44,202 nt of DNA from a virus. Its lineage: Duplodnaviria > Caudoviricetes. The notes beneath the pieces are model-generated. The model did not search any database and was not told the DNA's origin. It was given only the letters and a program-made list of their open reading frames with translations. This document shows, piece after piece, positions 653-37,471 of the stretch. The translations under genes were made by a program, and so were the position numbers. Position 1 is the first letter of the stretch; every line of letters starts with the position of its first letter. The stretch covers positions 1 through 44,202 of the IMG/VR virus record IMGVR_UViG_3300016675_000235. One strand, written 5' to 3'.

Positions 653-662
653 AACAGGACAA
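653..662 (+). repeat. AACAGGACAA motif copy in 5' leader of early operon
   Basis: Exact 10-mer just downstream of the predicted promoter, 36 nt before ATG 699. Confidence 0.7.
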
Positions 663-698
663 ACCCACGGATAGGGGGAAAACTAAACAAATAACACA

Positions 699-932
699 AT
701 GGACTATCTTCAAAAAATTATCATTGAAAATGAATCTTCAAGAGAAGAAATCAAAGAAATAATTGATGCAAGGGCTGAAGAGTGGGAAACCACTGCCGAT
801 ATTGATGATGATGGAACCGTGTCATTCAATTGGAGCCAAGATCAATTAGACCTGGATTTTCACCACAACGAAGAGGAAATAGTTGAATCAATCATATCTG
901 ATTTGAAGTCAATACTTCCTGACTTGTTTTAA
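699..932 (+). CDS. Small, highly acidic hypothetical protein
   Basis: 77 aa ORF, A-rich leader typical of Bacteroidota, first gene after promoter; D/E rich. Confidence 0.7.
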   Translation: MDYLQKIIIENESSREEIKEIIDARAEEWETTADIDDDGTVSFNWSQDQLDLDFHHNEEEIVESIISDLKSILPDLF

Positions 933-1194: not shown

Positions 1195-1204
1195 AACAGG
1201 ACAA
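1195..1204 (+). repeat. AACAGGACAA motif copy abutting ATG 1204
   Basis: AACAACAGGACAATG; the last A of the motif is the A of ATG. Confidence 0.85.
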
Positions 1205-6698: not shown

Positions 6699-6708
6699 TT
6701 GTCCTGTT
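6699..6708 (-). repeat. AACAGGACAA motif copy before ATG 6696
   Basis: Minus strand AAAAACAGGACAATTATG. Confidence 0.85.
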
Positions 6709-9025: not shown

Positions 9026-9141
9026 GGCTTTGTCCTGTTTTTGCGTACAACAATCAGTAAAACCACGGCCAATGTGATGTTGGCCGTGGCAATTATGGTC
9101 CCGAACAGGGTTAATACAACCAAATCAAGTATTGGACTCAT
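9022..9141 (-). CDS. 39-aa membrane peptide (not in ORF track)
   Basis: MSPILDLVVLTLFGTIIATANITLAVVLLIVVRKNRTKP; fills the gap between DUF4494 and the next peptide. Confidence 0.55.
   Translation of the reverse strand: MSPILDLVVLTLFGTIIATANITLAVVLLIVVRKNRTKP
9030..9039 (-). repeat. AACAGGACAA motif copy before ATG 9025
   Basis: Minus strand AAAAACAGGACAAAGCCATG. Confidence 0.8.
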
Positions 9142-9559
9142 AGGGGAAAACTTCGAGTATTTTTGTCTCCACAACGTCGGGTACCTGAAATGAAACAAGC
9201 ATGTTTTTTAACGATTCCTGGATCCTCTCGTGCGCCTGGGGAACATCGGAGGCTGTCACAAGCATGTATTGAGTGACCTTCTTTTCTTTTCCTGAATCTG
9301 AATCTGCGACAATGTACTGGATTTTAGCCTTGAACCACGGATTCCCGTCTCCATGATCAAACACATCCACAATGTTGCTTTTTGCAATATGGGTGACTTG
9401 GAAGTCTCCCCGGACCCGTTCGCCCATTTCCTTGTAAATAATCGACTCTGCCTCGGTGAATGAAACCGCATCGAGAAGGTATTTTTCCGATACCCATTTA
9501 AGCAGTCCCTGTTCGTTTTCCTTTACGTACTTCACGCGCACTTCATACCATGTCCTCAT
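9125..9559 (-). CDS. DUF4494 family protein (Bacteroidota)
   Basis: MRTWYEVRVKY..ENEQG..VSEKYLLDAVSFTEAE..WFKAK..DSDSGKEKK..LV.A..ETKILEVFPY. Confidence 0.9.
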   Translation of the reverse strand: MRTWYEVRVKYVKENEQGLLKWVSEKYLLDAVSFTEAESIIYKEMGERVRGDFQVTHIAKSNIVDVFDHGDGNPWFKAKIQYIVADSDSGKEKKVTQYMLVTASDVPQAHERIQESLKNMLVSFQVPDVVETKILEVFPYESNT

Positions 9560-14309: not shown

Positions 14310-14327
14310 TGATTGTCTTGTTTAGTT

Positions 14328-14582: not shown

Positions 14583-14597
14583 TTGTCCTGTTGTTGT
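14583..14597 (-). repeat. Extended motif copy ACAACAACAGGACAA abutting ATG 14582
   Basis: 15-nt perfect complement to the sRNA at 15249-15322. Confidence 0.85.
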
Positions 14598-14601
14598 TTG
14601 A

Positions 14602-14919
14602 TTAAAAATCCCGTAACTCTTGCTTTACGGTCGCCTGGTGTTTTTGCCTATCCTTGTAGCTTTCACCCCTTAATGAGGGCGTAAGCTCTTGGATTTTCTG
14701 CCTCATTCTCCTGATTGCCTCGGGACTGCTTAACGATGCAACCTCTTGAATCACTTTTCGCCTATTCACAAGTTCATTGGAATAGTTCTGCAGCCCTACT
14801 TTTTCAACAAGTTCCTGCTGCCAGATATTTTGGATCAGCCTCATATCGTCATCCCTGCAATGCGGATGCTCGATTAGGACCTTTTCAATCCTATTCCGAA
14901 GCTTCTTGTTCCTCAGCAT
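14602..14919 (-). CDS. Hypothetical protein
   Basis: 105 aa; L..HP..RDDD..L..IW and PEAIRRMRQKIQE motifs common in phage proteins. Confidence 0.7.
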   Translation of the reverse strand: MLRNKKLRNRIEKVLIEHPHCRDDDMRLIQNIWQQELVEKVGLQNYSNELVNRRKVIQEVASLSSPEAIRRMRQKIQELTPSLRGESYKDRQKHQATVKQELRDF

Positions 14920-15154
14920 TCAGCTTCTTCAATTTGGTTTTCAAATCCTTACGTCGCTGCGCCAACTCCGTAAGTACCTCAATCACGTCGTCATTCTCCG
15001 TAGTACCGGAGAGAACGGCATAAACCGATTGTCGGATCGGCGCTTTTTTTCCAGGGAATTTTTCTTTCCAGATTCTTTCAAAGTGGTGGTAGTATTTCCC
15101 TGGAAGCTGCTTTTTAAGCGTTTCCAAATCGTTTTGATCAAATAGTTTGTCCAT
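14891..15154 (-). CDS. Putative small DNA-binding regulator, first gene of the replication operon
   Basis: 87 aa; RQSVYAVLSG..N..VIE.L recognition-helix-like segment; position after promoter. Confidence 0.55.
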   Translation of the reverse strand: MDKLFDQNDLETLKKQLPGKYYHHFERIWKEKFPGKKAPIRQSVYAVLSGTTENDDVIEVLTELAQRRKDLKTKLKKLNAEEQEASE

Positions 15155-15186
15155 GCTAAATATAGGTTTGTTTGTAATTACACATT

Positions 15187-15194
15187 CAAATGTA
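15187..15194 (-). promoter_or_regulatory. -7 promoter element for the leftward replication operon
   Basis: TACATTTG matches TAnnTTTG, 32 nt before ATG 15154; -33 element not clear. Confidence 0.55.
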
Positions 15195-15248
15195 ATCTTT
15201 TCGATTTGATTTGGAAAAATTTTCTATAAAATTTATTTACGTAATGAC

Positions 15249-15280
15249 AAAAAATAAAGCCCGTCGATCAAAACGGGCTT
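15249..15280 (-). terminator. Intrinsic terminator of the sRNA
   Basis: AAGCCCGT-TTTGATCG-ACGGGCTT followed by TATTTTTT. Confidence 0.8.
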
Positions 15281-15322
15281 CGGGAGAAAAGTACAACAAC
15301 AGGACAATTGCGGACTTCTCTC
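15249..15322 (-). ncRNA. Candidate trans-acting antisense sRNA (~72 nt)
   Basis: Own promoter and terminator; stem GAGAGAAGU/ACUUUUCUC, upper stem GCAAU/GUUGU, apical loop UGUCCUGUU complementary to the repeated AACAGGACA start-site motif. Confidence 0.7.
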
Positions 15323-15324
15323 TG

Positions 15325-15354
15325 CAAAGATAAATACGTTTCCCGTTAAAACAA
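15325..15354 (-). promoter_or_regulatory. Consensus Bacteroidota promoter driving the sRNA
   Basis: TTG (15354-15352), 19-nt spacer, TATCTTTG (15332-15325) followed by CA. Confidence 0.75.
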
Positions 15355-15384
15355 CAAACCCCGAACATTTCTGCTCGGGGCTTT
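15348..15384 (-). terminator. Intrinsic terminator ending the tRNA/ncRNA transcript
   Basis: AAAGCCCCGAGCA-GAAA-TGTTCGGGGTTTGTTGTTTT with GNRA loop and G-U pairs on the minus strand. Confidence 0.8.
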
Positions 15385-15618
15385 GTGCTTGAATTTATCT
15401 TCGATTGGCTTGTCCAAGCAACTCCTTTTCCTTTTCAACCAAACCAATCTATTCGGCATTCGGGCCAAAACCTATCTTTGACACATGGTAGCTATATCCA
15501 CACATCAAAGCTCGCTGTAACGGGGAGACTCTACTTTCGTAGATACGTGCAAAAACCTGAATTAGCTAGTTTCAAATTGTCGCACTTGTGATTGCTCGCC
15601 TCCCCTTCCGGGGTTCAT
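15385..15618 (-). ncRNA. Candidate structured ncRNA downstream of tRNA-Met
   Basis: Helices GGGGAGGC/GUCUCCCC, GUGCGA/UUGCAC, UUUGAA/UUCAGG, UCUAC-GAAA-GUAGA, CUUUGAUGUGUGG/CCAUGUGUCAAAG, GAUUGGUUUG/CAAGCCAAUC; G-U pairs work only on the minus strand. Confidence 0.65.
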
Positions 15619-15619
15619 G

Positions 15620-15693
15620 TTGCGGTGGCAAGATTTGAACTTGCGATCTTTGGATTATGAGTCCAACGAAGACGGCCACTCCTCTACACCGCA
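15620..15693 (-). tRNA. tRNA-Met (CAT), initiator-like scaffold
   Basis: TGCGGTG/CACCGCA acceptor, GAGG/CTTC D stem, TTGGA-CTCATAA-TCCAA anticodon arm, GCAAG-TTCAAAT-CTTGC T arm; CCA not encoded. Confidence 0.93.
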
Positions 15694-15734
15694 TGTCAAA
15701 TTTGAAAGATAATTTTTACAAAAGCAACCCAATG

Positions 15735-16346
15735 TTACTTTTTTTTCAATGAAACCAAATTGATTTTGATGTTTGCTGTAATCAACGGATCATTAAGATA
15801 CCTTGGCCTTGGCGTGTAGTCCACGTTTGCCATAAATCCGTTGCCCAGGTATGCAGCACCGATTTGGTAATCGAATTGGTTGGAGAATCCGCCACCGACA
15901 AAAATACCCTTTTGGATGATGGTTGTCTCCGCCGTTTTTTCGGTTGTGATCGTATTGGTGACTACCGGTATTCTGAAATCGGTCCGCAGGCTTGTTTTCC
16001 TTACCTCCCCGAGGACTTCTCCTTCAAAATAGGCATTTCCATACAAAAGCGGGAACGTGGCTGAAAACGCCTGGATTTTCGGCACATATCCCGGAGCAAG
16101 TATGGTGTCACGCAATACGGTATGCTTGATTTCAACCTTTGGCTTTTTGCCCAATGCTATTTCCAAGGAATCCGCATAATTGGATAGTGCGGAATATTCG
16201 GCCAACAAGGTTGAATCCACCCTTGTTTCTATTTTGGTGTGTTCCTTGTAAACAGTATCGACAACTGGATCCAATAAGAGTCTTGCAATCACAAACCCGG
16301 CGATCCCCCCGAGAATCAAAATAGCGATGTATGGGTAGTATTTCAT
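15735..16346 (-). CDS. Membrane-anchored lysis accessory protein (spanin-like position)
   Basis: N-terminal TM, C-terminal beta-strand GIFVGGG..YQIGAAY pattern; TAATG coupled to endolysin. Confidence 0.55.
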   Translation of the reverse strand: MKYYPYIAILILGGIAGFVIARLLLDPVVDTVYKEHTKIETRVDSTLLAEYSALSNYADSLEIALGKKPKVEIKHTVLRDTILAPGYVPKIQAFSATFPLLYGNAYFEGEVLGEVRKTSLRTDFRIPVVTNTITTEKTAETTIIQKGIFVGGGFSNQFDYQIGAAYLGNGFMANVDYTPRPRYLNDPLITANIKINLVSLKKK

Positions 16347-23728: not shown

Positions 23729-26700
23729 CTATCTCAAATAAACCCGATATCCAACCGGAGTATCGAAATCCAATGCAATTCTGTTCAAATCAAATCCACC
23801 TCCCGAAGGGATCAATCTTACACCTACCTCAATTTCAAACCCGGCAAGGCTTGTGACAAACACCGACGGTATCTTGCCCAAATTATGGGTAATTGTTCTG
23901 GTGCTTTCAGGAACACCCTCATACACAAAGAAAGCACAATCTCCCCTGGAATTGAAGTATGCCCGATAATTTATTGGGTCCTCAAATGTCAAAAGCATTT
24001 GGTTTAGGTTAACTACCCCATCCTCAATAACCAACTGAACCCCGCAATCAATCAAATTACCGTTTTCATCGGTAACAAAAACCGACGGGACCTTGCCCAG
24101 GTTGTGTGTAACCAATCTCGATTCCTCTGCGGTACCCACATAAACAAACTCCTCGCATTCATTATCCCCGCAGTCCTCGCACTCACACAACGATACCTGC
24201 GCATCCTGCATGGCGTAAAGATACCTTGCAGAACAATTGAACCTCCTTTTGATGGCTTGGTAGCGGTACTCGATATCGGTATCCAAAAGCTGGATTTGGC
24301 CGTTTTTGTGGTAGTTGGTGCCTGACATGATCAACCGATAGGCATACATGCTTCCCCATTGAATGTAAATCCGTGGGTCATACAGAAAATCGGTCTTTAT
24401 GCTCTCGTTGAACAACGTGTAATTGATCGTATTGTCATCCCGGTACCCCTTCAACTGAATGTTGACCGGAAGGTATTGTTCGACCGTTGGCTGTACGGGC
24501 TGTCTCAGCGCCATCCTCACAAATGATGTGAACATACGCTTGTAAACATAAGGCTGCTGGAATTGTATCAACCTTGTTTGCAGCGACCACGCTACCGGGC
24601 TTTCTACGTCCTTATCCGAAAAATCCTTGATGGTATTGTCTAAAGTCATCCCAAGCAGCTCGGGATAATCGTAGAAGAAGAATTTGAAACGCTCCGTGGC
24701 CTTGTACCAAACCTTGTATTTCAACGAGTAGCAAAGTGAATAGTCGTAGAACGGATTGGAGAAAATCACTTCCTCGTAGTCGGTTGCCCGATGGTATCCA
24801 ATCCTGATCTGTTTGAGATATTCCTTGTATTGTGGATCGTTGGCGATAGCCTCGTCAAGGCGAACAGTGTCAAGCCCCGCCATGGCGTAGATGTATTTGT
24901 TGTCACACGCCACAATAAGGGTTCCGGCATTAGTGATGGCATAGGTATTGTTTACCCCATTGAAGTTGCTTACGGGAGAAATACGGCCAAAGGCTATTGT
25001 TGGATCTCCTGTTTGCTCCAAGGCCCAAACACCCTTGTCCGAAAAGGCATAGACCGGGTATTGCCCCGCCTGCCCCTCCGATGTAGGGTTGAGGTTTATG
25101 CCAAACGCCAATATGGTATCACGCTCCCGATTCCCTACCCTGTATGTCGCCAAAGCGTCGAAGTAAAAAGGATTTCCCGAAAAGGAAGCCTGAATCCTGT
25201 TTCTTACCCACTGCTGGATGTCGTTAAGGGATAGGTCAGGCTCGGTTGTCAATGCCGTGGACGTTCCAAGGGTGTATGTCACCTCCGCTTCATCAATAAG
25301 CGCATAGGCATAATTTGAACTTGGGTGGGCCACAAGTTTTTTATCGAAGGCCACTTCATAATCCGAACCGTTTTTCACGATGAACTGCAGCCTTGTCGCC
25401 CGCCTGTCTGGATACCAAAATGTTCTCCCGCCAAGAGTCACCTCCGTAATCGAATCCAATATAGTCCGCTTTTTGATTCGGTAGTATGTGCCTGCGTCGG
25501 TTTTGATTGTGACCACTTGGAATGAAGCATTACCCAATAAAGTAGTGCCTCCCCCGCCTTCCTCCACGGTGACTTCCCCAAAAACAAAATAGGGCACCTC
25601 TACTGTATTGTCAATCGGATTGACTGCGCCTGGGCTTACCCTAACGGTGATAACCTCGTCAGCCGGGCTTCCGATCGGGCCAATGTCGATCCTTATGATC
25701 ATGTAGGCTCCGTCGGCCAAACTAGCCGATCCAAAGGTGCTTTCGATTTGAGTGATGCTTAATTCGATTTCCCCGTCAATGTTGATTTGGGCAATGTACG
25801 TGGCGTTTGGTAGGTTTATCAATCCTCCCGGCGGGTTAATGTCCTGCGATCCGGGAAAGCTTTCAACGATTTCTATGTCCTTGAACTCCCGGCCAGCCAA
25901 TGGCTGGAAGCTTGCCGACCAATTCTGGGTGAATGTTTCATAGTCCCAAAGCTCTACCTCGGGGTCGATTACATTTCCGGCAGAATCATAGTAATTGGTC
26001 GTTTTGAAGTAGTTTCCGGTCAAAAAATCAAGGTAATTGGTATATGGGCCGCCGTCTGGGTCAAATCCTCCCGTCACGCCAAGGTCGGGCAGCGCAAAGT
26101 CAACGGATGATCCGCCAAGCAATAACCTTGCATTATATGTGTCAACCACACGGGCCGAAAACCTGTGGTGGCTGAAACTGTCAATGTTCAATGTCCTGAA
26201 TGTGGCCCATTTTACCGATGGCGAATCCACCTCGAATATGTTTGGATCGGTAGCCGTCGGCCATTGATCGGATGGCAATTTGTCCACCCATGGGAAAAAT
26301 CCAACCTCATACCATACTCCGTCATCCAGCGTCTCCTTTTCGGATGTTTTAGGCAGCGTACAGAACAGGGCGACTCCCGAAATAAGGCCCTCCCAAAATC
26401 CAAGATTCGGCAATGGTGTTTCGTATCCCAAATGCTCAAATTTAACCGTCACAAACTCCGTTTCCAAGCCTTGGACAACCCGTATCAGGTTGAATTTTGA
26501 ATGCCTCACGTAGGAGCCGTCAAACAACCTGAATGCCCAACAAATCATGAACGATTGGTCCTGATCTGTTTTTCGCTGTATCCCCGTTGTATCCCCGGCC
26601 AATATCTCAGGCTCGGTATAGGTGTTGGTAAGTACCGTGTAGCCTATTTTCGGCATGATGGGCCATCCCTGCTCAATGAATAGATCATCAATGAGGTAGT

Positions 26701-27160
26701 ATATTTTGAATGGAACCTGGTTGCGGACAAGTGCTATGACCGTTACCTGGTTTACCCTTGTACAGGTCCATGAGTATGCCCCGGATGTTGGTAGAGTTTG
26801 TGTGGCTACCACCGTCCATGTGGATGGCTCAACAATGTCGATTGCTTTCCTTGATTCGGTTTGGCACAATACCAATAACCTTTTCAGGCTTTGCGTAGGG
26901 GAATTGGAGAACTCCCCTATTTGGTTTCTTACTTGCCAAAAAGCGTCTGAAATGGCAGCCATACCATATTCGTATGTGATTGCGGTGCTGCTTCCGTTTT
27001 TTAGGGTATTTATCCTTTCGAATGGTGCCCAATATGGATTTGTTTCCGCTCCTTTTGGCTTTAGGTTTACAATAGAGTCACATAGCCCGTCCAATGCTTG
27101 GTCGTCCAAAAGTTGGTTGTTGATTCCCAAAAACGGTATGTTTACTTGTTGTCCCCTCAT
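23729..27160 (-). CDS. Tail nozzle / stabilization protein (P22 gp10-like) with C-terminal repeats
   Basis: 1143 aa; GI..DG....VNL N-terminus, NRIQAS..NPFYF, GQYPVYAFSDKGVWAL motif, position after adaptor genes. Confidence 0.7.
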   Translation of the reverse strand: MRGQQVNIPFLGINNQLLDDQALDGLCDSIVNLKPKGAETNPYWAPFERINTLKNGSSTAITYEYGMAAISDAFWQVRNQIGEFSNSPTQSLKRLLVLCQTESRKAIDIVEPSTWTVVATQTLPTSGAYSWTCTRVNQVTVIALVRNQVPFKIYYLIDDLFIEQGWPIMPKIGYTVLTNTYTEPEILAGDTTGIQRKTDQDQSFMICWAFRLFDGSYVRHSKFNLIRVVQGLETEFVTVKFEHLGYETPLPNLGFWEGLISGVALFCTLPKTSEKETLDDGVWYEVGFFPWVDKLPSDQWPTATDPNIFEVDSPSVKWATFRTLNIDSFSHHRFSARVVDTYNARLLLGGSSVDFALPDLGVTGGFDPDGGPYTNYLDFLTGNYFKTTNYYDSAGNVIDPEVELWDYETFTQNWSASFQPLAGREFKDIEIVESFPGSQDINPPGGLINLPNATYIAQINIDGEIELSITQIESTFGSASLADGAYMIIRIDIGPIGSPADEVITVRVSPGAVNPIDNTVEVPYFVFGEVTVEEGGGGTTLLGNASFQVVTIKTDAGTYYRIKKRTILDSITEVTLGGRTFWYPDRRATRLQFIVKNGSDYEVAFDKKLVAHPSSNYAYALIDEAEVTYTLGTSTALTTEPDLSLNDIQQWVRNRIQASFSGNPFYFDALATYRVGNRERDTILAFGINLNPTSEGQAGQYPVYAFSDKGVWALEQTGDPTIAFGRISPVSNFNGVNNTYAITNAGTLIVACDNKYIYAMAGLDTVRLDEAIANDPQYKEYLKQIRIGYHRATDYEEVIFSNPFYDYSLCYSLKYKVWYKATERFKFFFYDYPELLGMTLDNTIKDFSDKDVESPVAWSLQTRLIQFQQPYVYKRMFTSFVRMALRQPVQPTVEQYLPVNIQLKGYRDDNTINYTLFNESIKTDFLYDPRIYIQWGSMYAYRLIMSGTNYHKNGQIQLLDTDIEYRYQAIKRRFNCSARYLYAMQDAQVSLCECEDCGDNECEEFVYVGTAEESRLVTHNLGKVPSVFVTDENGNLIDCGVQLVIEDGVVNLNQMLLTFEDPINYRAYFNSRGDCAFFVYEGVPESTRTITHNLGKIPSVFVTSLAGFEIEVGVRLIPSGGGFDLNRIALDFDTPVGYRVYLR

Positions 27161-27161
27161 T

Positions 27162-27746
27162 TCAGAACATTCGGTATGGTTTTGATACTTTGTAGCTTTT
27201 TTGCATGTTGAGCGAATTGGTCATCAGTTCTTTCTTCCAATATTCGAACAGTTGCCATTTTTGCGTCATGCTGTCGGTGATCCTGTTAAGCTCGTACCAC
27301 TTGAATAGGACGTACTCTATGATTGCCGCCCTGATTTGGCTTTGCGTGACCGTATATTTCAATGGTGTAATACCATCCATCTGTTGGATGTTGAATTCAA
27401 GCGTATCCATTGCCCGCTTGGAAAGAAGCTCTCCTGTCTGTTTTTGGTTTTGCTGGAGATCAACATGGTTGAATTCATCAAGGGGATTATCATCGGTCTG
27501 ATGGTTGGATATTGCGTCCAGGGCTGTCTGCTCGGTTGATGTGATGTAGTTGCAGGAGTCTGCAATAAGGACCGCCGCTTCGTTGGCCCATGGCCAAATC
27601 AACTCGTAGTCGTCAGCGGAAATGACGATTTTTTGGTTTTCGCCATTGTTGCCCAACACCCTTGAAAGGTATGCCGTTTGCTGTTCGCAGGAGTTGAATA
27701 TTTCCTGCAAATCCACCCGTATGCTGTTTGATGTGTCAAGCGCCAT
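27162..27746 (-). CDS. Putative tail ring/adaptor protein
   Basis: 194 aa helical; IIEYVLFKWY motif; position between head and nozzle genes. Confidence 0.55.
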   Translation of the reverse strand: MALDTSNSIRVDLQEIFNSCEQQTAYLSRVLGNNGENQKIVISADDYELIWPWANEAAVLIADSCNYITSTEQTALDAISNHQTDDNPLDEFNHVDLQQNQKQTGELLSKRAMDTLEFNIQQMDGITPLKYTVTQSQIRAAIIEYVLFKWYELNRITDSMTQKWQLFEYWKKELMTNSLNMQKSYKVSKPYRMF

Positions 27747-27747
27747 G

Positions 27748-28812
27748 TCATTCCCCTTTTAGACCGTACCTGTTTGAGTAGAATTTTTGGACCATGGCAA
27801 ATGCTGTTTCCGCACGGTCCTTTTGATTGACTATAAGCATTACCCTTGCCGCACATTGGTAAACTACCGGATCCACAAGATCGTCCGGTAATTGGTTCGG
27901 CTCAATCCGTGGCACATAGTAAAACTGTCCGATAGTCGGCAATGTCTTGGATGTGAAGCATTCAATTGCAAGGCCATTGTTGGGTATGCTTTCCGATATT
28001 TCCGCCTCCGTGTAATCCGCAAATGAGATTAGCGCAGCCTTCGGCTTCAATTGGGTGCCCCTTGTCCACTTGATTGTTTTCTGGGCCGTGTATTCAGCCT
28101 CGTTTTCCTCGGGAATAAGCTCCGTCACTGGCTTTGACCATGTGCTTAACCTGATATTCACAAACCGCAAAAAGTCCGTTGGGCACGGGATGATATAGGT
28201 TTCCGGGGTATTCGATTGCACTACCCTGATATTCGGGTTGTCCGCCTCTGCGGTGATCGGTCCGTCAATGTAGGTCTTGTCAAATCCAGAACCATTGTCC
28301 AGGATGATGACCTTCATGATAAGAACACTGCCCGCAGGAGTATTGGGGAAATCAAGCAAATCGGGGTTTGCATTTGCCACCCCCGAAATGTATTCAAGCT
28401 GCCCAAGGTTATTGCCGACAATGATGTCACGCCTGTTGAGTCCTGCGGTAGGGTCGGCGGCGGCTGTCACCGCAAGGGGATCGCCTGAAAAACCTATTCC
28501 ACCGATGTTGTATTCGACTCCCTCTATTCCCGTGATGGAATCCGCTACTATAACGGGGTCGCCTACCGATATTAGCCCGGTGTTTGCGCCTGGGGTTATT
28601 GGAAAATGCTTGGTCCCGTTTTTGATAACCTGCCTCACCTGCACAATTGGCGCTTGGCGCAAAACGTCATAAATCGACTCCTTCAGTTCTCTTTGGATGA
28701 AGGCTACGGGACCTTCTATGATTGAATCATCAACCACGTTTTCCCCCGGCGGAAGGATTTCGTCGATTTTGGCCGCCACAAATTGGACCAATTGCGCTTC
28801 GGTGAAAGGCAT
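27748..28812 (-). CDS. Putative head-tail adaptor with internal insertion
   Basis: IPCPTDFLRFV..W, RGT..KP, YYVP..LVDPVVYQCAARV motifs; G/P-rich insert (ADPTAGLNRRDIIV). Confidence 0.6.
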   Translation of the reverse strand: MPFTEAQLVQFVAAKIDEILPPGENVVDDSIIEGPVAFIQRELKESIYDVLRQAPIVQVRQVIKNGTKHFPITPGANTGLISVGDPVIVADSITGIEGVEYNIGGIGFSGDPLAVTAAADPTAGLNRRDIIVGNNLGQLEYISGVANANPDLLDFPNTPAGSVLIMKVIILDNGSGFDKTYIDGPITAEADNPNIRVVQSNTPETYIIPCPTDFLRFVNIRLSTWSKPVTELIPEENEAEYTAQKTIKWTRGTQLKPKAALISFADYTEAEISESIPNNGLAIECFTSKTLPTIGQFYYVPRIEPNQLPDDLVDPVVYQCAARVMLIVNQKDRAETAFAMVQKFYSNRYGLKGE

Positions 28813-28818
28813 TTCAAG

Positions 28819-29331
28819 TTATTTCAAATTTGGGAATGAGATTCCTTTTTCTTCGGCAAGTTTGAAGATTTTCTCCTTGTTGTTGGTGTCCCTTGCTGTA
28901 AGCCCAGGGAAAAGACCTCTAAGGACAATACCTGCCTGCTGTGCGGTCGTTACGTCTGGATACTCTGTGGCGGATGTTTTTTCCTCCTCGGCATTTTCCT
29001 CCTCGGATTCATTGACCGTCACTTCATTTACCGCCTCGTTTACCGATACGGTTTCAGGTGCCTTCTTTGCCTCGGCCTTTTTTGGGGCGGATTCATCAAC
29101 GATTTCCCTGAATGATGCACCACCGTTGGCTTGGTTGCCGCCGTAAGCCCGCAGATACTTGATGACCTCTGGATCGTTTGTTGAAAACGTCGCCGGATAG
29201 ACCTTGTTTTTTACTCGGTTTCCGGTATTGAATGTGATTGTTTGGTCCCGCAGGATTTGTCCTTTCCCGTCTCTTTCAATGAATGGTACTACCAGATGGA
29301 GCATGTCCATCATTGCTTGAAATTTTGCCAT
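28819..29331 (-). CDS. Hypothetical virion-associated protein
   Basis: 170 aa after the capsid gene; ATFSTNDP and AEEKGISFPNL ends with acidic linker. Confidence 0.65.
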   Translation of the reverse strand: MAKFQAMMDMLHLVVPFIERDGKGQILRDQTITFNTGNRVKNKVYPATFSTNDPEVIKYLRAYGGNQANGGASFREIVDESAPKKAEAKKAPETVSVNEAVNEVTVNESEEENAEEEKTSATEYPDVTTAQQAGIVLRGLFPGLTARDTNNKEKIFKLAEEKGISFPNLK

Positions 29332-29362
29332 TGTTGTGTTGCAGTATTTTGTTTTGAAATAT

Positions 29363-29392
29363 AGGGCGGGACTGTATCAACGGCCCCGCCCT
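29363..29392 (-). terminator. GC-rich hairpin after major capsid gene
   Basis: AGGGCGGG..CCCGCCCT stem, weak U-tract; probably a partial terminator or mRNA stabiliser. Confidence 0.55.
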
Positions 29393-29398
29393 CAATTA

Positions 29399-30778
29399 CT
29401 AGGCTGTACGCTTGATTCTTGCGTGTGTGGCAAGGTATCTAGTCTCCAAGCACATGATTTCCTCAATCAATGTGGCGTTGGTGTTTTCGATACCGGCTTC
29501 CCTCAATTTCAATTGTCTTGAGGTCAAAGGCATAAATGGACGTTTCCTGATTTGGGTAAGGTCAAGGACTACCCCGTCGTCGGTGTGACCCATCACGTCA
29601 AATACCTTGTCGTGCTTGATATAAAGGTCGCCAAACATGGTTTCAACCCTTTTCAACTTAACGCCAGCGACGATTTCTGTTTCACGTCCGTTAAACTGCT
29701 TCTGAACGTCAGGAATCTTGGAGATTGCTGCGATCAGGTTACGTCCTGCCATTACATATCTGTCCGTTGCCCCGGCATTGTCGGCAAACAGGGTATTACA
29801 CCAGTCAATCCACATATTGTTGGTGATACCTCCTGCGGTAGTCCAATCAAGCTGCTTGGTCAATTGATGGTACACGCCCTCTGCGTAGTAGATGTCCTCC
29901 TCCTCTGATTCGGATGGTACAATGTATTTCTGTCCAAAATAGGATGCTTTCGCAATTTCGGTACGGAAATCATACATACGGATGAAGTTTTGGTCCCTGA
30001 AATTGAACCCTGTCTTGGTATCCAACATTGATCGGATATATCCTTCCTCCACCTGCGCCATGTGTCTTTGGCAATAGTTGAATCTATGCCCTGGGATCAA
30101 TGTCTTGTTGGCCGCCCTTGCTTTCTTTTCACCGTGTGCCGTTGGAGCCCTGTAAAGCGGCGTATCATTTGCGATTGCAGGCAAAAGGTTGTTGGTTGTG
30201 TTGATTGCCGTTACCCTCAACGTGCCGTTGCTGTTGATAGCATCAATCCTCAATGTCAACGGCTTGCTGTCCAATCCGTTGATTGATGGGATATAGATGG
30301 ATTCTCCAGGTACCCAAAGGGAAGGATTGTCAACGGAGATATTGCCAAATGCTACGGCACCTCCACCAGGAACGACGTATGCTGCCGCCATCTGATCACG
30401 GTGTCCCCTGAATTCAACTTCATCAAAATGAACGATTAGGTCTGTTGCTTTTTCGCTTTGTCCCGCCTCCCTCAATAGGGTGTCAAGCGCAAAGTCGTCG
30501 GGCATGATCATTGTGACAAAGGTGGAAACATCCTCGTCCAAATAGCCGGGGTCGGTTGCCGACCTTGGCCGGGCCGCCTCATTTGTTGCCCTAGTGTTTG
30601 AAGCCAACAAAGTAGTGTTGGCCACCATAAACGTGCTGCCACCCCCTAGCCCGAGAAAGGCCACAAGGGATTCGGCCAATTCCGGTGCTACGAGCGAAAT
30701 GACCGAAAAAGCTGCGAACACCATCAAGACCAGCGTAAGCAGGCCCTTGGCGAAATTGTGTACTGATTGCTTTTTCAT
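29399..30778 (-). CDS. Major capsid protein with hydrophobic N-terminal extension
   Basis: 459 aa after scaffold; FNYCQ, FRTEI...YFG, EGV, GV....ET.FGDL..KH..F, VLDL..I, LE.RY..HA pattern of HK97-fold capsids; followed by hairpin. Confidence 0.8.
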   Translation of the reverse strand: MKKQSVHNFAKGLLTLVLMVFAAFSVISLVAPELAESLVAFLGLGGGSTFMVANTTLLASNTRATNEAARPRSATDPGYLDEDVSTFVTMIMPDDFALDTLLREAGQSEKATDLIVHFDEVEFRGHRDQMAAAYVVPGGGAVAFGNISVDNPSLWVPGESIYIPSINGLDSKPLTLRIDAINSNGTLRVTAINTTNNLLPAIANDTPLYRAPTAHGEKKARAANKTLIPGHRFNYCQRHMAQVEEGYIRSMLDTKTGFNFRDQNFIRMYDFRTEIAKASYFGQKYIVPSESEEEDIYYAEGVYHQLTKQLDWTTAGGITNNMWIDWCNTLFADNAGATDRYVMAGRNLIAAISKIPDVQKQFNGRETEIVAGVKLKRVETMFGDLYIKHDKVFDVMGHTDDGVVLDLTQIRKRPFMPLTSRQLKLREAGIENTNATLIEEIMCLETRYLATHARIKRTA

Positions 30779-30820
30779 TGGTTGGTATTTGTTTTTAGTT
30801 GGTTTGTTCTCTATTCTTTA

Positions 30821-31861
30821 TTACCTGTTCCGTAATTTTTCCATGAAACTTGTCGGAGGAACTGTGACGAGTTCTGAAAGCTTTGATCGCTGCTTTGGCT
30901 TCTCCTGCGGGATCGCTTTGCCCAATTGTGGCACGATACCTCTTTCGGCCTTGGCTTTTTCCACTGCAATTTTGGCGTTCCTTCCGGCGATCTCCCCTGT
31001 TTCCCTTGCTTCCTCTATCGCCTTTTTGTAGTTGAGGCCACGCGCAAACAAAATCAGCGTCTCTTTGGTGACAAGTCCGTCAAGGAGTTCTGCATGGATC
31101 TTCGACATGAGCCCAACAAGGTCCTGTTTCACTTTGTCGTCAAATCCTTCGGAGGTTTGGAACTCTGCCAGCGCCTTGTTTGATTCCTCCATGTTTTTTT
31201 GGAGACGTTTTTGGGCTTTTTGCTGCTCCTTGATTTGGTTCTCCCTTTCGATCTTTGCCCTTACGAGTGTTTCCTTGTCGGTTTCCTCTAGGTTTTCAAG
31301 GTCAAACACACTTTCGTCAAGACCTGCTTTTACAAGGGCAATCGGGAATGCGTATCCTTCGGCTACAAATCTCATGACCTCGATAAGGTCCGGATCGCTT
31401 ACCTTTTCAACAAAGTCCTGAATCTGCTGCTTTTCCTCGGCCAACGCCTTGCGCTCCTCGGCCACAGTTCCAATATATTCCTTGATGGCATCCACCCCAG
31501 CGAGTTTTTTACCCTCCACTTCAATTTCGATTGGTTCGGCCTTAATTTCTGTGGCTGCCTCTATTTCCTCCTCTACTTCTTCCTCTTCCTCTACTTCCTC
31601 GGTTGATTTCTCCTGGAGCTTTTGGTTTATCAAATCTTTGAAAGAACCTCTTTCCGCAATCATTTTGATGGCATCCTTTGACACCTGGGATTCGGCTTCG
31701 ATTTCCTCCACTACCTGTTCATCCACCGCCGATTCCTCGACTGCCTGATTCTGGGCCTGCTCAACAACCTCTACCGCCTCTGCGATTGGTTTTGGCTCCT
31801 CTTGTTTTGCTTTTTGGGTTGCTGCCTCTTTTTCGGCTACCCTCTCTCTGAATGATGGCAT
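30821..31861 (-). CDS. Capsid scaffolding protein
   Basis: 346 aa, very E-rich and helical, AREtGEIAGRNAKI motif, directly upstream of capsid gene. Confidence 0.7.
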   Translation of the reverse strand: MPSFRERVAEKEAATQKAKQEEPKPIAEAVEVVEQAQNQAVEESAVDEQVVEEIEAESQVSKDAIKMIAERGSFKDLINQKLQEKSTEEVEEEEEVEEEIEAATEIKAEPIEIEVEGKKLAGVDAIKEYIGTVAEERKALAEEKQQIQDFVEKVSDPDLIEVMRFVAEGYAFPIALVKAGLDESVFDLENLEETDKETLVRAKIERENQIKEQQKAQKRLQKNMEESNKALAEFQTSEGFDDKVKQDLVGLMSKIHAELLDGLVTKETLILFARGLNYKKAIEEARETGEIAGRNAKIAVEKAKAERGIVPQLGKAIPQEKPKQRSKLSELVTVPPTSFMEKLRNR

Positions 31862-31878
31862 AAGCGTTGTTTTAAATG

Positions 31879-31929
31879 CAAAAAGGCCCTGCCTTCCACT
31901 ATCGGAAAGCAGGGCCTCAGAAGGCTTTT
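31879..31929 (-). promoter_or_regulatory. Terminator-like hairpin in the leader of the head operon
   Basis: AGGCCCTGCTTTCC-GATAGT-GGAAGGCAGGGCCT-TTTTG ending ~18 nt before ATG 31861. Confidence 0.65.
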
Positions 31930-32018
31930 ATGTATTAGGTTCTACTTTGAGGCACTAATATTGCCTAAATATAACAATTTGTCAAAATCTTGAATATTTT
32001 TTTTTGATTTTGTTCAAA

Positions 32019-32426
32019 TCAATCCCCGAACAAAAACAAAACACCCTTGTTCACCTTTCTGTTTTTCTTCCTGAAAGGAACATCATGCCTGTTGTGACAT
32101 CTTTGGCAAGCGGCTTTCAGGTTTGAGTAATCATTGTTGTCCGTATTGTGGTCAAGGTGCATGATTGTGAGTACGACTTTTATGAGTCGATTTGTGGGAT
32201 GGACTTCCCCTAGATAATCCTCCCCAATACGTTCGCTTGTATTTGCGTCGTAAATTATCCCATCATCATCTTGGTAGCATTCCACGCCGTTCCAGGTGCC
32301 ACGGATGATCATTTTGTGGTTGGGCACACCGCAAATCTCGCAGCAATGCTTTGCACGTTCCAATATTGCCGGACGGATATCTGTTTTCCAGTTTGGTGGA
32401 TATTTTGAATAGTCGCAGGGCATCAC
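32019..32426 (-). CDS. HNH-like endonuclease
   Basis: YPPNW..IR..ILERA..CCEICG..VLTIMHLDH...NN...NLKAACQRCHNRHD. Confidence 0.8.
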   Translation of the reverse strand: MMPCDYSKYPPNWKTDIRPAILERAKHCCEICGVPNHKMIIRGTWNGVECYQDDDGIIYDANTSERIGEDYLGEVHPTNRLIKVVLTIMHLDHNTDNNDYSNLKAACQRCHNRHDVPFRKKNRKVNKGVLFLFGD

Positions 32427-32710
32427 CGTTTCCTTTTGGCAATTTCTCCACGGACGACCTGCGCCACTTGCTTAACGCCTCCCTTGGTGTAGCTGCGTTT
32501 CAGTTCCTTTTCAGTGCTTTGGTAGATGATGGTAGGCACTTTCAAAAGGTACTCTTTGTTGGGATCAATTGTTTTGGCGATAGGCTGCTTGCCATATCCG
32601 GTCAAAAGCAACTCCCATCCCATTATCGGCTCCTCGGTCATTATCTGCTTTTGGATATCCCCGAGTTTTTCCGCAATCGCTTTTAGCTTGCGGGATGTCT
32701 TTTTTTTCAT
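32423..32710 (-). CDS. Basic hypothetical protein
   Basis: 95 aa in coupled operon. Confidence 0.6.
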   Translation of the reverse strand: MKKKTSRKLKAIAEKLGDIQKQIMTEEPIMGWELLLTGYGKQPIAKTIDPNKEYLLKVPTIIYQSTEKELKRSYTKGGVKQVAQVVRGEIAKRKR

Positions 32711-32871
32711 TCTACCCTCCTTACTTTGGCTTCACCAAACATTAGTACCGCAATATTGACCATCCACCCGTTTTCTGCTTTGTACGACGGATCAACCTTT
32801 TCCCGTGAATCACTTACCTCTATCACCGGATTACGGTAGGATAGTGATTTTTTCTGTCTGTGTTTTTTCAT
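32707..32871 (-). CDS. 54-aa hypothetical protein (not in ORF track)
   Basis: MKKHRQKKSLSYRNPVIEV..; ATGA overlaps at both ends. Confidence 0.55.
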   Translation of the reverse strand: MKKHRQKKSLSYRNPVIEVSDSREKVDPSYKAENGWMVNIAVLMFGEAKVRRVE

Positions 32872-33593
32872 GATGGAAATAGCATTAACTGTGATTTAAA
32901 GTTGTTGAATCGTTTTTCCTGTTTTGTCCAATATTCCGAATTTATTTCAAATGCAGTAAAATCACACCCAGCCAAATACGCTTCAATCCTGATTGAGCCT
33001 CCTCCAAGATGTGTGTCAAGTAACTTCATTCCTCTGAACCCATAATCGCTAATGAGTTTTCTGTAAAGAAGTCTTGGCTTATGGCAAGGATGTAATCTTT
33101 TTTCATTTAGCTTTTTGTTCCCCTGTTGAACCATTGGTTCGGATAGGCTTTTTGCCTGCATCATTCCCGACCATAACAAATCTATCTCCTCAACATGATC
33201 AATCATTGAGGCGTAAGCCATTTCATACTCTTTAAAACTTACACCTTCCGCAACACCCTTGTTCCACTTTATCCTTCCCGGACCAAGCCCAACCCAATCA
33301 ACATATTCAACACCAAAAATTATTTGCTCTTTGCTTACCCGTCTTAATTCATCAAAATAAGACTGGCTTGGAGGTTTTAAATCCCAATCATATTGAGTGT
33401 ACGGTTTTTTGTTTTTGTTTCCGTTGATTCTTGATCCATTTCTTTGTTTGATCGTAGTTGATACCTCCTTTAAAAATGGCATGTTTGCCACATTTATCCC
33501 ATACGGTATGTCGCAGATAGCCAAATCGAAAATTTTGTCTGGAAATCTTTTCATGCCGATTTCACAATCCTGTTGGTAAACCACGCTTTCCAT
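32868..33593 (-). CDS. N6A/N4C DNA methyltransferase (beta order), DIPY variant
   Basis: DLAICDIPYG, HPCHKP, LLDTHLGGGS, FEINSEY; real start probably 33593 (TAATG overlap). Confidence 0.85.
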   Translation of the reverse strand: MESVVYQQDCEIGMKRFPDKIFDLAICDIPYGINVANMPFLKEVSTTIKQRNGSRINGNKNKKPYTQYDWDLKPPSQSYFDELRRVSKEQIIFGVEYVDWVGLGPGRIKWNKGVAEGVSFKEYEMAYASMIDHVEEIDLLWSGMMQAKSLSEPMVQQGNKKLNEKRLHPCHKPRLLYRKLISDYGFRGMKLLDTHLGGGSIRIEAYLAGCDFTAFEINSEYWTKQEKRFNNFKSQLMLFPS

Positions 33594-33838
33594 TATCCCA
33601 ACTTTCTCAGCCACTCCCATTTGGCTAGTTTTTCCTCCAATAGCTGTTTGTGGACCTCGTTGTTTCTCACAAGACCAGCCTGCATGACCGAATAGTCCCA
33701 TTTTCTGCGCTCCGACGATCTCAACGCAAGGTTCCATCGGTTCATAACCTTGTTGATCCCCTTGACACGGCTTTTCTCGACCTCTTTATGGATGTCGGAA
33801 ACCACCCACCTATAAATGAATCGAAATAGTTTTTTCAT
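33593..33838 (-). CDS. Hypothetical protein
   Basis: 81 aa, coupled to both methylase genes. Confidence 0.6.
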   Translation of the reverse strand: MKKLFRFIYRWVVSDIHKEVEKSRVKGINKVMNRWNLALRSSERRKWDYSVMQAGLVRNNEVHKQLLEEKLAKWEWLRKLG

Positions 33839-34905
33839 ACAAAAAGACCTAATTCCTTATAAATACGTTTTTCAGCAATCTTAATATATGTTGGATTCAA
33901 TTCAAATCCAATGTAGTTTCTATTGAGTTTTCTGGAAACAATTGCCGTCGTACCGGCACCCATAAAGGGATTAAGAACAATCCCACCTTCGGGGCAACCT
34001 GCTTTAATGCAATCCACGATCAAATTCTGTGGAAATGTGGCAAAATGGGCTTCTGAAAATGGCTTTGTCGATACTGTCCACACGGATCGCTTGTTGGCTC
34101 CGTCTTTTACTTCATAATACTCATTATTGCTGTTTCCGCTTGGTTTTACTCCCAATCCATTGGCCTGTCCTCTTGAAAACGATTTTTCTCCGAGTTTTAT
34201 CTTTCGACCATTGTTAGTTGCTATTGCTGTTTTCCCTGTATCAAACGATGAGCCCTTCCATGATGAAACAGCCTTCATTTTTCCGTTTGTTTTTCCAGGT
34301 ACACGGTCGCTTCCTTCTTGGTTCTGTATGTCTTGGCTCAGTCGCTGTATGGAACTATCGGTTAAATTTTGCTTTATAGAATCATGATCATAGTAGTACT
34401 TCGGAGACTTACTGAGTAAAAAGATATACTCATGTGATTTGGTACATCTATCAGTCACACTTTCTGGCATTGGATTAGGTTTGTGCCAAATGATATCTTG
34501 CCTCAGATACCATCCATCTGCACGTAAGGCAAAGGCAACCATCCAAGGAATACCGACCAGGTCTTTTGGTTTTAGTCCGTTTGGAACACCAAGATTAGGA
34601 TATTGAGAATCTCCGAGATTTCTTTTCCCAATTGATGGGTCGCCTCCTCCTGATTTTGATGGATTAGCATAGCTATCCCCAAGATTCAACCAAAGAGTAC
34701 CATCAGGCTTTAATACCCGTTTTACTTCCCTGAATACGTTCACAATGTTTTGCACATATTCCTCTGGAGTTTTTTCAAGCCCAAGTTGTTCTTCCTGACC
34801 ATAGTCCCTTAACCCCCAATAAGGCGGAGACGTGACGCAACAATTCACCGACTCATTAGCAAGTGGAAGCGGATTTTTGACGTTGTGTTGTATTATCTTG
34901 TTCAT
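33835..34905 (-). CDS. N4C/N6A DNA methyltransferase (beta order)
   Basis: TSPPYW, LWLNLGDSY, IIWHKPNPMPESV.DR, HFATFP, NPFMGAGTT. Confidence 0.92.
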   Translation of the reverse strand: MNKIIQHNVKNPLPLANESVNCCVTSPPYWGLRDYGQEEQLGLEKTPEEYVQNIVNVFREVKRVLKPDGTLWLNLGDSYANPSKSGGGDPSIGKRNLGDSQYPNLGVPNGLKPKDLVGIPWMVAFALRADGWYLRQDIIWHKPNPMPESVTDRCTKSHEYIFLLSKSPKYYYDHDSIKQNLTDSSIQRLSQDIQNQEGSDRVPGKTNGKMKAVSSWKGSSFDTGKTAIATNNGRKIKLGEKSFSRGQANGLGVKPSGNSNNEYYEVKDGANKRSVWTVSTKPFSEAHFATFPQNLIVDCIKAGCPEGGIVLNPFMGAGTTAIVSRKLNRNYIGFELNPTYIKIAEKRIYKELGLFV

Positions 34906-35018
34906 ACAAACAACGGATCTCCTGTTCTTTGGTCGATATCTACAATAGGTTTTCTGCTTGGTTTTGGCGCTTTACCTTTCAGCACCATTTGGAGAATCTT
35001 TCTGATCGCTTTTTTCAT
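34902..35018 (-). CDS. 38-aa basic peptide leading into the methylase genes
   Basis: MKKAIRKILQMVLKGKAPKPSRKPIVDIDQRTGDPLFV; start marked by motif; ATGA overlap with methylase. Confidence 0.6.
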   Translation of the reverse strand: MKKAIRKILQMVLKGKAPKPSRKPIVDIDQRTGDPLFV

Positions 35019-35418
35019 TTGTCCTGTTGTTTTTATAGTCCCTGAATTCAAAATATTTGCCCGAAAACATTTCCGTGATTCCTTCGCATCCCCGGCCAAG
35101 CTGGAATTGCACACATTCACGCTTGCCCTCCAATACTTCGTTGACCAGTACCAGGATTTCCCGTTGTTGGTCGGTTGTCAGCCGCCCTATCGGTTCGGTA
35201 TCCCTGAATGCCATCATCGTTTTTTGGTAGGCTTTCAGATACCCCTTGGATGCCCGGTACCTTTCCTTTGACATCCGTACTCCATTTGAGTTGTAGAGAA
35301 GGTCGGTCATCTCGTCCAACTGATCGAAACTATCCCTGAACTGCTGCATCACATATCCGGGATTGAAGCCCTTTTCCGAGGAAAAGAACCGTATCTTTTC
35401 TGGGTCGTATTTTTCCAT
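34972..35418 (-). CDS. Hypothetical protein
   Basis: ~148 aa, first gene of leftward methylase operon. Confidence 0.6.
   Translation of the reverse strand: MEKYDPEKIRFFSSEKGFNPGYVMQQFRDSFDQLDEMTDLLYNSNGVRMSKERYRASKGYLKAYQKTMMAFRDTEPIGRLTTDQQREILVLVNEVLEGKRECVQFQLGRGCEGITEMFSGKYFEFRDYKNNRTNEKSDQKDSPNGAER
35019..35031 (-). repeat. Motif copy AACAACAGGACAA abutting ATG 35018
   Basis: 13-nt perfect complement to the sRNA. Confidence 0.8.
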
Positions 35419-35488
35419 CAATAGAATCGGTTTGCTAAATTAACGGAAAATTTTTCCAAAAATGAAATTCGATATTTTTTTTCCATTA

Positions 35489-35521
35489 TTTGCTTTTTAT
35501 GTTACGTTTTATATACATTTG
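35489..35521 (+). promoter_or_regulatory. Consensus Bacteroidota promoter, probably leaderless transcript
   Basis: TTTG (35489-35492), 21-nt spacer, TACATTTG (35514-35521); ATG only 4 nt later. Confidence 0.7.
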
Positions 35522-35525
35522 AATT

Positions 35526-36119: not shown

Positions 36120-36159
36120 TTGTTAATTGAGGTCGCCAGTGCCTTACAGTGGTGAATTT

Positions 36160-36243
36160 GGTCAAGTGGCGGGAAGGATATGCGCAATGAGTAGGCAAGT
36201 AAAATCTACACATCACTCACAGGTTCGAGTCCTGTCTTGACTG
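36160..36243 (+). tRNA. tRNA-like element with non-canonical anticodon arm
   Basis: Acceptor GGTCAAG/CTTGACT, D arm GCG..GG..CGC, T arm ACAGG-TTCGAGT-CCTGT; central arm GTAGG-CAAGTAAAA-TCTAC lacks U33 and a 7-nt loop. Confidence 0.65.
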
Positions 36244-36249
36244 CAACGA

Positions 36250-36533: not shown

Positions 36534-36543
36534 AACAGGACAA
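36534..36543 (+). repeat. AACAGGACAA motif copy before ATG 36546
   Basis: AAAACAGGACAAATATG. Confidence 0.85.
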
Positions 36544-37192: not shown

Positions 37193-37471
37193 ATGAAAGC
37201 AAAAACAGTAGTATCGAAAGCAACCCAGAAAATGGTAGATGTAGCCATGTGGATGATCATTGGAATGTTTGTCCTGTTCATCGGGATGTCATCAGCAAAG
37301 GCCGAAATGCCAACCGAAGCGCCGGTGATCGAAAAGGTCTGCAACTATGGTCCAAACGGAGGTGTAAACCGAAATGTCAAAAAATACCATCGCCAAAACA
37401 GGCGCAACTTCCATTGCTCGCTTTGCCCGGCTACTGGTTTGAGGAAATTTATACCTAAAAGATGGAGATGA
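37193..37471 (+). CDS. Small exported/membrane protein
   Basis: Hydrophobic stretch followed by SAKA-E cleavage-like site; basic Cys-containing tail. Confidence 0.6.
   Translation: MKAKTVVSKATQKMVDVAMWMIIGMFVLFIGMSSAKAEMPTEAPVIEKVCNYGPNGGVNRNVKKYHRQNRRNFHCSLCPATGLRKFIPKRWR

Follow-up and report, generated by a model that had tools for sequence, protein, structure and literature searches.

The CI RNA of phage P4 acts through transcription termination and is one of the RNAs by which phages control genes in antisense. The phage antisense RNAs described in a review act on one or few targets (PMC12197685); among them, P22 sar, lambda OOP and aQ have one or two targets and are mostly encoded in cis. 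The c4 RNA of P1 and P7 forms three stem-loops with two seed loops (a' and b'), is processed by RNase P from a precursor and has the ant mRNA as its target (PMC12197685, PMC5320573). In Cluster K mycobacteriophages, start-associated sequences (SAS) of 13 bp with a Shine-Dalgarno core are conserved across subclusters, and a single reversed copy was noted in four phages (PMC3203893, 2011). Their function was stated to be unknown in 2011, 2024 and 2025, and antisense RNA is not mentioned for them in the consulted parts of these papers (PMC3203893, PMC11373665, PMC12699233). Stoperators of Cluster A phages are protein-bound DNA sites that block elongation; they occur in 20-30 copies, are not tied to start codons and have no mirror RNA (PMC6550527). 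A search of freely accessible literature on phage RNAs and SAS gave no description of an RNA addressing a genome-wide start tag.

The window, i.e. the whole stretch of DNA analysed here, is an entire virus record of 44,202 bases, which was rated 57% complete by CheckV. Its genes include those for an SU10-type capsid protein, a P22-like portal, an LPD38 protein, an SbcC-like protein, RecT, two DNA methyltransferases and an endolysin. The capsid protein was 60% identical to a protein of Algoriphagus and RecT 49% identical to one of Pleomorphovibrio; these named homologues point to Bacteroidota, probably Cyclobacteriaceae, as hosts of this uncultured phage. Against cultured phages, the capsid protein matched three Bacteroides phages at 23-28%, and the portal search returned one plasmid record at 25%. 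No relative was found in the species genomes scanned, and a single-protein scan with RecT gave nothing. Comparison of 15150-15750 with phages by blastn returned tRNA matches and one weak other match among the best 20 of 115.

The region 15249-15322 is likely to be a small RNA gene whose loop is exactly complementary to six start tags and one leader tag. Its elements and neighbours are given below.

15356..15383, minus strand: upstream terminator-like hairpin, which parts the RNA unit from the tRNA-Met region
15352..15354, minus strand: TTG resembling the -33 element of a predicted Bacteroidota housekeeping promoter (from the sequence and the published consensus)
15325..15332, minus strand: predicted -7 element TATCTTTG (TAnnTTTG), 19 nt from the TTG
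15249..15322, minus strand: candidate small RNA of ~70 nt with two hairpins (predicted transcript); fold z -6.7, syntenic unit in the relatives G003 and G007
15284..15322, minus strand: predicted seed hairpin with lower stem GAGAGAAGU/ACUUUUCUC, upper stem GCAAU/GUUGU and loop UGUCCU (15306-15301)
15306-15298, minus strand: antisense tag UGUCCUGUU, inside the seed hairpin
15249..15281, minus strand: intrinsic-terminator-like hairpin (15281-15256) with T-tail
14891..15194, minus strand: 87-aa gene with a second TAnnTTTG element (15194-15187), next to the RNA unit

The initial annotation had described a minus-strand promoter of the form TTG-N19-TATCTTTG, followed at a short distance by a terminator, with no ORF between them. 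Using the Bacteroidota consensus of PMC7366714, the promoter coordinates (15354-15352 and 15332-15325) were confirmed; a terminator-like hairpin was found as well, and no ORF of at least 45 aa lies over the unit. The -33 TTG and the T-tail of the terminator upstream (15383-15356) share bases. Since TAnnTTTG occurs 35 times in the window, this element by itself is weak evidence; 15249-15322 was the only intergenic unit of consensus promoter plus terminator detected in the record. A sigma-70 scan yielded no promoter, the sigma-70 model not being applicable to this host group. The 87-aa gene matched itself alone in a homologue search, and an integrase and a cI-like gene are both absent beside it in the window.

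The 74-nt RNA was folded with an energy of -29.8 kcal/mol (z -6.7), and none of 200 shuffled sequences folded as well; the plus strand of the unit folds less well (-20.7, z -3.7). All six bases of the UGUCCU loop had an unpaired probability of 1.0, and GUU was paired to AAU. The GCAAU/GUUGU stem drawn by hand before is also listed for the computed fold; the 9-nt apical loop drawn with it is not, the computed loop being the 6-nt UGUCCU and the longer one a shifted register. Rfam gave no match for the unit at the gathering score, nor at E-values up to 10 within 15150-15760. With its own predicted promoter, an intrinsic terminator and no ORF, the unit agrees, by sequence only, with the general class of trans-acting base-pairing sRNAs.

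In two RNA runs, 6-10% of the words of this region were present, and the assembled contigs span 15374-15593 as well as a portion of the tRNA. No assembled contig covers 15223-15364; as contigs can neither reveal nor exclude a 70-nt RNA, they weigh neither way. One of the runs contained capsid-gene pieces of a relative that is 90-97% identical, and the other held nothing on 24203-44202. The tRNA is a tRNA-Met(CAT) at 15619-15693 (minus), between the lysis cassette and the RNA unit. From there to the terminator at 15383 extends a stretch of ~220 nt (15374-15593, minus) with many hairpins (z -5.0 for 15350-15618). It has no Rfam match, is covered by the RNA-run contigs with 0 and 2 differences, is absent at the G003 locus, and is a candidate for a separate non-coding RNA.

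The tag AACAGGACA is present in nine copies in the window (0.42 expected), a number reached in none of 100 shuffles. Six copies precede an ATG, one lies in a leader, one is reversed in the RNA (15298) and one is at no start (37270, minus). The motif claimed at six start codons and one 5' leader was therefore found as described, with the loop as its exact complement; the copy at 37270 is missing from the first account. All copies outside the RNA, and two variants, are listed here.

14584..14592, minus strand: tag before ATG 14582, the start of an 84-aa gene that lies upstream of those for the SbcC-like protein and RecT; 15-nt complement
1195..1203, plus strand: tag before ATG 1204 (157 aa); 14-nt complement
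35020..35028, minus strand: tag before ATG 35018 (38-aa ORF); 13-nt complement
6700..6708, minus strand: tag before ATG 6696 (218 aa, 4-nt overlap with the next gene); 12-nt complement
9031..9039, minus strand: tag before ATG 9025 (44-aa ORF); 10-nt complement
36534..36542, plus strand: tag before ATG 36546 (60 aa), inside the span called as a permuted tmRNA by ARAGORN; 10-nt complement
653..661, plus strand: leader tag of the operon whose start is at 699; 10-nt complement
37270..37278, minus strand: ninth copy, away from start codons
16720..16728, minus strand: variant AATAGGACA with one mismatch, before ATG 16717 of the endolysin gene; pairing would use U-G and reach 10 nt including wobble
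14314..14322, minus strand: variant AACAAGACA before ATG 14309, a weak candidate with one true mismatch

The pairing lengths reported earlier for 14582 (15 nt), 1204 (14 nt), 35018 (13 nt) and 6696 (12 nt) hold as exact, contiguous Watson-Crick pairing. At 36546, 9025 and 653 the contiguous pairing is 10 nt, so that three of the seven targets would pair over only this length. The 5' module of the RNA matches seven start windows of its own genome (shuffle mean 0.53; as many in none of 500 shuffles). ATGA coupling, also claimed, was found as a four-base overlap downstream of the targets at 6696 and 35018; it does not apply directly to 14582, which is followed by an 18-nt gap. In the case of 35018, the stop of the 38-aa ORF overlaps the start of a 356-aa DNA methyltransferase gene. 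With a four-base overlap between two tagged ORFs and the genes that follow them, an effect on these ORFs could be polar.

The tagged genes of the window are non-structural, the 14,115-base structural block is free of exact AACAGGACA copies, and no match to an antirepressor family was obtained among the tag targets. The most enriched start motif of the window was ACAGGAC. The tags lie 0 to 5 nt from the ATG, and a role as Shine-Dalgarno sequence was rejected, this spacing being too short. One-mismatch tags were counted by hand as seven of the wobble type versus two with G-to-A, as base composition predicts, i.e. there is no excess of wobble-compatible variants. The span around ATG 36546 (36213-36578, plus) was recognised as a permuted tmRNA by Rfam (RF04321, 56.4 bits versus 47), with the ARAGORN tag GKTVLISRPVARVAA; the start tag is located at its 3' end, and ARAGORN called no tmRNA in G001-G005.

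Scans with the capsid and portal proteins yielded four close records (G001-G004), to which the G003-like G007 was added; further scans with the portal and a second conserved gene returned known types only. AACAGGACA stands at ORF starts in 5 of 9 cases in the window (G000; ORFs of at least 40 aa), 5 of 5 in G001 and 6 of 11 in G003. The corresponding tags are AACAGGAA[AC] in G002 (9 of 12) and ATCAGGAA[AT] in G004 (8 of 17); the background is 5-6%. Judged from these sequences, the start tags are genome-specific across the clade. One orthologous start (window 35018) carries each genome's own version in all five, and the counterpart of the 653 leader is tagged in G003 and G004, each with its own tag. 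A shift in concert throughout a genome is expected if the tag tracks one trans factor. The distant relative G005 has no such tag. At 653-700 (plus) the tag is followed by a small GGA-loop hairpin, which is kept in G003 (38936) and G004 (18727). Beside the HTH gene, a 64-aa protein (1766-1960, plus) is conserved in G001 and G003; QTDLF near its end resembles a sliding-clamp-binding motif.

G003 is a complete record with terminal repeats, and its capsid protein is 59% identical. Its RNA unit, between the last gene of the lysis cassette and the same 87-aa gene, is syntenic and comprises a predicted promoter (TATATTTG) and two hairpins, one with the UGUCCU loop of the window and one like a terminator, whose tail is less canonical. 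A C-G pair closes the upper stem in the window and a G-C pair does so in G003, the seed extension changing from GUUGU to GUUCG. Among the targets, the flank AC is present at three of seven in the window and CG at none; in G003, CG is present at four of nine and AC at none. Seed/target covariation in relatives, proposed as a check by the initial annotation, was thus observed in G003 as a compensatory stem change with a matching target flank; unrelated Bacteroidota phages show the same layout with other tags. With the cognate RNA, the perfect run was longer at 8 of 18 sites (7 exact sites of the window and 11 of G003) and shorter at none. Duplex energies do not favour the cognate RNA, G003 site 14316 having -28.3 with the window RNA and -22.8 with its own. 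Because only two independent RNA versions were seen (G000; G003/G007), the covariation in this clade is a single event. The CG flank may be ancestral, since G002 also carries it. Two starts of G003 have GGG in place of GGA. G003 targets with a family match include an SbcC-like gene, a C5 methylase and a PAPS-reductase-like gene; SSB is reached through a wobble variant.

The antisense unit was not found in the tagged records G002 and G004, or in the fragment G001. The gap after the lysis genes is missing in G002 and G004, as these records begin and end on start or stop codons, and G001 ends short of the lysis-cassette gap. Relatives that keep the tag and lack the antisense copy, which the initial annotation would have taken as evidence against the RNA, do occur in several records; since these are gene-trimmed proviruses or fragments in which the expected locus is missing, they are not decisive. 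If the RNA acts on the tags, the gap between lysis cassette and att should hold a hairpin unit showing UUCCUGUUCG in G002 and UUCCUGAUU in G004. A unit at 13747 of G002 with three matches (AGGCCATG) was treated as chance. Beside their 87-aa homologue, G002 and G004 carry both an integrase and a cI-like gene, which G003 lacks; in these proviruses the homologue is divergent from the cI-like gene, which adjoins the integrase. In G004, a tag also stands before the cI-like gene.

At loci reached through RecT, the start tag was another one, AACGCAA. Two units were found in G011: the first follows the lysis cassette, and the second lies antisense in the leader of cro. Both comprise a TAnnTTTG promoter, a hairpin with the AUG mirrored in its loop, up to 22 nt of complementarity to tagged starts, and a terminator. 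Another unit, with a different fold, was found in G014. A detector was run on 32 records (the window and 31 of 69 others, chosen for kinship, completeness or tag, 13 of them partly for carrying a tag). Only consensus-promoter units were counted, because a relaxed promoter definition picked up many target starts read in reverse. Of 58 intergenic units with consensus promoter and terminator, 11 share an antisense 8-mer with at least three start windows of their own genome. Ten of the 11 mirror a tag and fall into five sequence types (window, G003, G007, G011 twice, G012, G014, G017, G022, G042); the eleventh is probably chance, and the other 47 score 0-2. A strict terminator test missed the units of the window, G003 and G014.

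The unit of G042 was found blind. Its seed is UUGUGUU versus UUGCGUU in the G011 family, and its starts carry AACACAA versus AACGCAA, so that seed and target covary in one event in the G011/G042 group and one in the window clade. A pattern scan yielded 16 loci, 12 of the GCG type and four identical ones of the GTG type. The latter are flanked by 4-7 ACAC tags and no ACGC tag; the flanks of the 12 GCG loci hold just the RNA's own copy and are uninformative. In another pattern search, one of three matches, L117, was rejected as chance because it falls within a coding gene, in a virus that is unrelated. Among 8 sequences of the G011 family, double changes preserve 8 of 23 stem pairs. When each unit was folded both ways, G-U pairs favoured the antisense strand in the window, G003, G011 and G014. 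A matrix of 6 RNAs by 22 records was largely block-diagonal: the window RNA matches seven start windows of its own, 6, 4, 4 and 2 in its clade and 0-1 in the other 17 records. Specificity of the Bacteroides type is one-sided, the G011 RNA matching six starts of G042.

The unit follows the lysis cassette directly in G003, G011, G014 and G017, and follows the lysis cassette and tRNA region in the window; in G011 and G017 it is att-proximal. G069 has a fourth tag (ATCCATAC) and a short mirror unit found by hand, which overlaps a start region and is a probable tag mirror; a unit of G048, also overlapping a start region, is a doubtful one. Further genome-specific start tags are ACACAC[TA] in G049 (ACACACT 9 of 12), AAGCAATATG in G040, CACTATG in G048 and AACAAAC in G019. 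No unit was found in tagged G049 and G040 (gene-trimmed) or in the fragments G013, G015, G018, G035, G050 and G063. Rfam had no match for the units of other phages in the eight loci scanned, and the G011 RNA gave one weak match among cultured phages.

Some other elements were encountered in these records. Inverted tag pairs lie just behind cro-like promoters in G002 (59334-59354, TTCCTGT-N7-ACAGGAA) and G013 (about 29080-29105, TTGCGT-N8-ACGCAA) and are candidates for a cis hairpin or an operator. Another conserved promoter-terminator unit of ~77 nt (G011 33454, minus; also G012, G017, G018, G022 and G042) has no match to its own start windows. Long conserved inverted repeats, followed by a short ORF, are located between lysis cassette and RNA unit in G011 (about 58340-58490) and G017 (about 9120-9280), in a layout like that of type I toxin-antitoxin systems. 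L165 (9779-9864, G014) contains a match to RT-17 RNA.

Taken together, the locus probably encodes a c4-like, multi-target antisense RNA that represses translation of the tagged genes in trans. The RNA would be transcribed by a host sigma factor from the consensus promoter, early and steadily. Its open UGUCCU loop would nucleate on AGGACA, and the weak AAU/GUU upper stem would then unzip and give a duplex of 10-15 bp over the A-rich bases just before the AUG. Ribosomes of Bacteroidia are described as blind to Shine-Dalgarno sequences, and initiation as relying on A-rich bases before the AUG instead (PMC7797042, PMC13000457). Duplexes across the initiation regions would block translation of the tagged genes together, with polarity onto overlapped downstream genes. 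A stable RNA accumulating during infection would act as a brake on early and middle genes, and would also silence them in a carrier or lysogenic state; the brake is favoured, as the tagged genes are non-structural. Late shut-off of early genes fits the position behind the lysis cassette and G003 without an integrase, and expression in lysogens fits the att-proximal position in G011 and G017. The tag before the cI-like gene of G004 argues against immunity as the sole role. In G003, the RNA could stand in for repressor control, since this complete record is without the integrase and cI-like gene of its clade.

The tags could also be sites for a protein, i.e. asymmetric, stoperator-like DNA sites, or RNA sites bound by a protein of phage or host such as a repressor of the CsrA kind, with the reversed copy as an operator or incidental. 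Their clade core CAGGA resembles a CsrA site, the 653 leader has a conserved GGA-loop hairpin, inverted tag pairs are found near cro-like promoters in G002 and G013, and the window encodes an HTH protein (1935-2168). Stoperators of Cluster A are likewise asymmetric, transcription-oriented and phage-specific (PMC6550527). Such a role is nevertheless unlikely. Among 65 proteins of the window, whose record is only 57% complete, and 100 of its relatives, none matched the CsrA family. GGG replaces GGA at the two G003 starts, and other tag families have mirrors without any GGA. The GGA loops of CsrA/Rsm-type sRNAs were not found: the favoured strand shows UCC, and the GGA strand of the unit folds worse and is without the promoter and terminator arrangement. 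A DNA operator, for its part, leaves unexplained the hairpin of the reversed copy, the compensatory stems, the strand-biased G-U pairs and the unit's own promoter and terminator.

The covariation is compatible with any pairing mechanism, including an RNA that pairs with the tags and acts positively or on stability, as a ribosome guide or licensing factor in trans or by directed cleavage. The loop contains UCCU like an anti-Shine-Dalgarno sequence, and the ribosomes of Bacteroidia are blind to Shine-Dalgarno sequences (PMC7797042, PMC13000457). We rate positive action as quite unlikely: the duplex would cover the bases directly 5' of the AUG (and, for the G011 family, also the start codon), where a helix should block the 30S subunit, and a spacing of 0 to 5 nt is too short for a role like that of a Shine-Dalgarno sequence. 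It is very improbable that the tags enhance initiation by themselves and were spread by copying or homogenisation, the hairpin being a relic or terminator without a role in trans. The A-rich flanks, as in initiation regions of Bacteroidia, and the tagged records in which no antisense unit was found would agree with this; the matched changes of RNA and tag in two separate phage groups and the recurrence of the same layout with four unrelated tags speak against it.

If a repressing antisense RNA is the correct reading, one phage RNA would address a start-codon tag throughout the genome and form a global switch free of protein. Bacteroides have no homologues of Hfq or ProQ (PMC7366714); the hosts concerned would thus be ones that lack both and ignore Shine-Dalgarno sequences. 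For Bacteroidota genetics, the unit points to an orthogonal repressor of compact size. Many phages may run such a private translation switch, in which a genome-specific start tag and one mirror RNA are re-coded together; it would extend over Bacteroidota phages with unrelated tags and K1-type mycobacteriophages and serve as an RNA-based code for early shut-off and immunity. This extension is tentative, and we would bet slightly against it. If true, it would explain start-associated sequences that have been without explanation since 2011.

The RNA resembles the c4 RNA of P1 and P7 as a phage-encoded, structured RNA of ~70-80 nt that seeds with its loop, would pair in trans at ribosome-binding regions, and differs between related phages by few-base shifts of specificity (PMC12197685, PMC5320573). 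Unlike c4, the window unit combines a single seed hairpin with a terminator, is preceded by a predicted promoter of its own and would have about 7-10 targets at dispersed sites. A loop complementary to ribosome-binding regions and a phage-specific seed were found in the window; Rfam C4 and the form with three stem-loops were not. Antisense control of developmental genes, as proposed here, is shared with the P4 CI RNA and with P22 sar, lambda OOP and aQ (for the latter three, PMC12197685). Stoperators likewise comprise many asymmetric, transcription-oriented and phage-specific sites under one regulator (PMC6550527), and seven of the nine tag copies share the coding strand with the start or leader to which they belong.

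With the SAS of Cluster K, the window tag shares its asymmetry, a position few bases before non-structural start codons and a single orientation (PMC3203893, PMC11373665, PMC12699233). The most enriched start motif of the window does not correspond to the 13-bp SAS consensus GGGATAGGAGCCC; the tag is analogous, not homologous, to SAS. The right 31.6 kb of Adephagia contain 16 forward SAS and one reversed copy; the latter makes up the loop in a long hairpin (z -3.7) at genes 92/93 (L236, 30660-30715; about 58660-58715 of the record). Late transcription of Adephagia begins between genes 92 and 93 (PMC11373665), so that the reversed copy of Cluster K sits in a late leader and that of the window in a stand-alone unit. 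The Adephagia region matches 146 records. The CCUCCU loop is kept in four of six aligned Cluster K phages; Keshu and Pharb have another loop, with 11 SAS each in 13 kb. The anti-SAS hairpin of Cluster K is a lead, not proof, for a system of the same kind, and the reading put forward here makes the function of SAS testable in a cultured phage.
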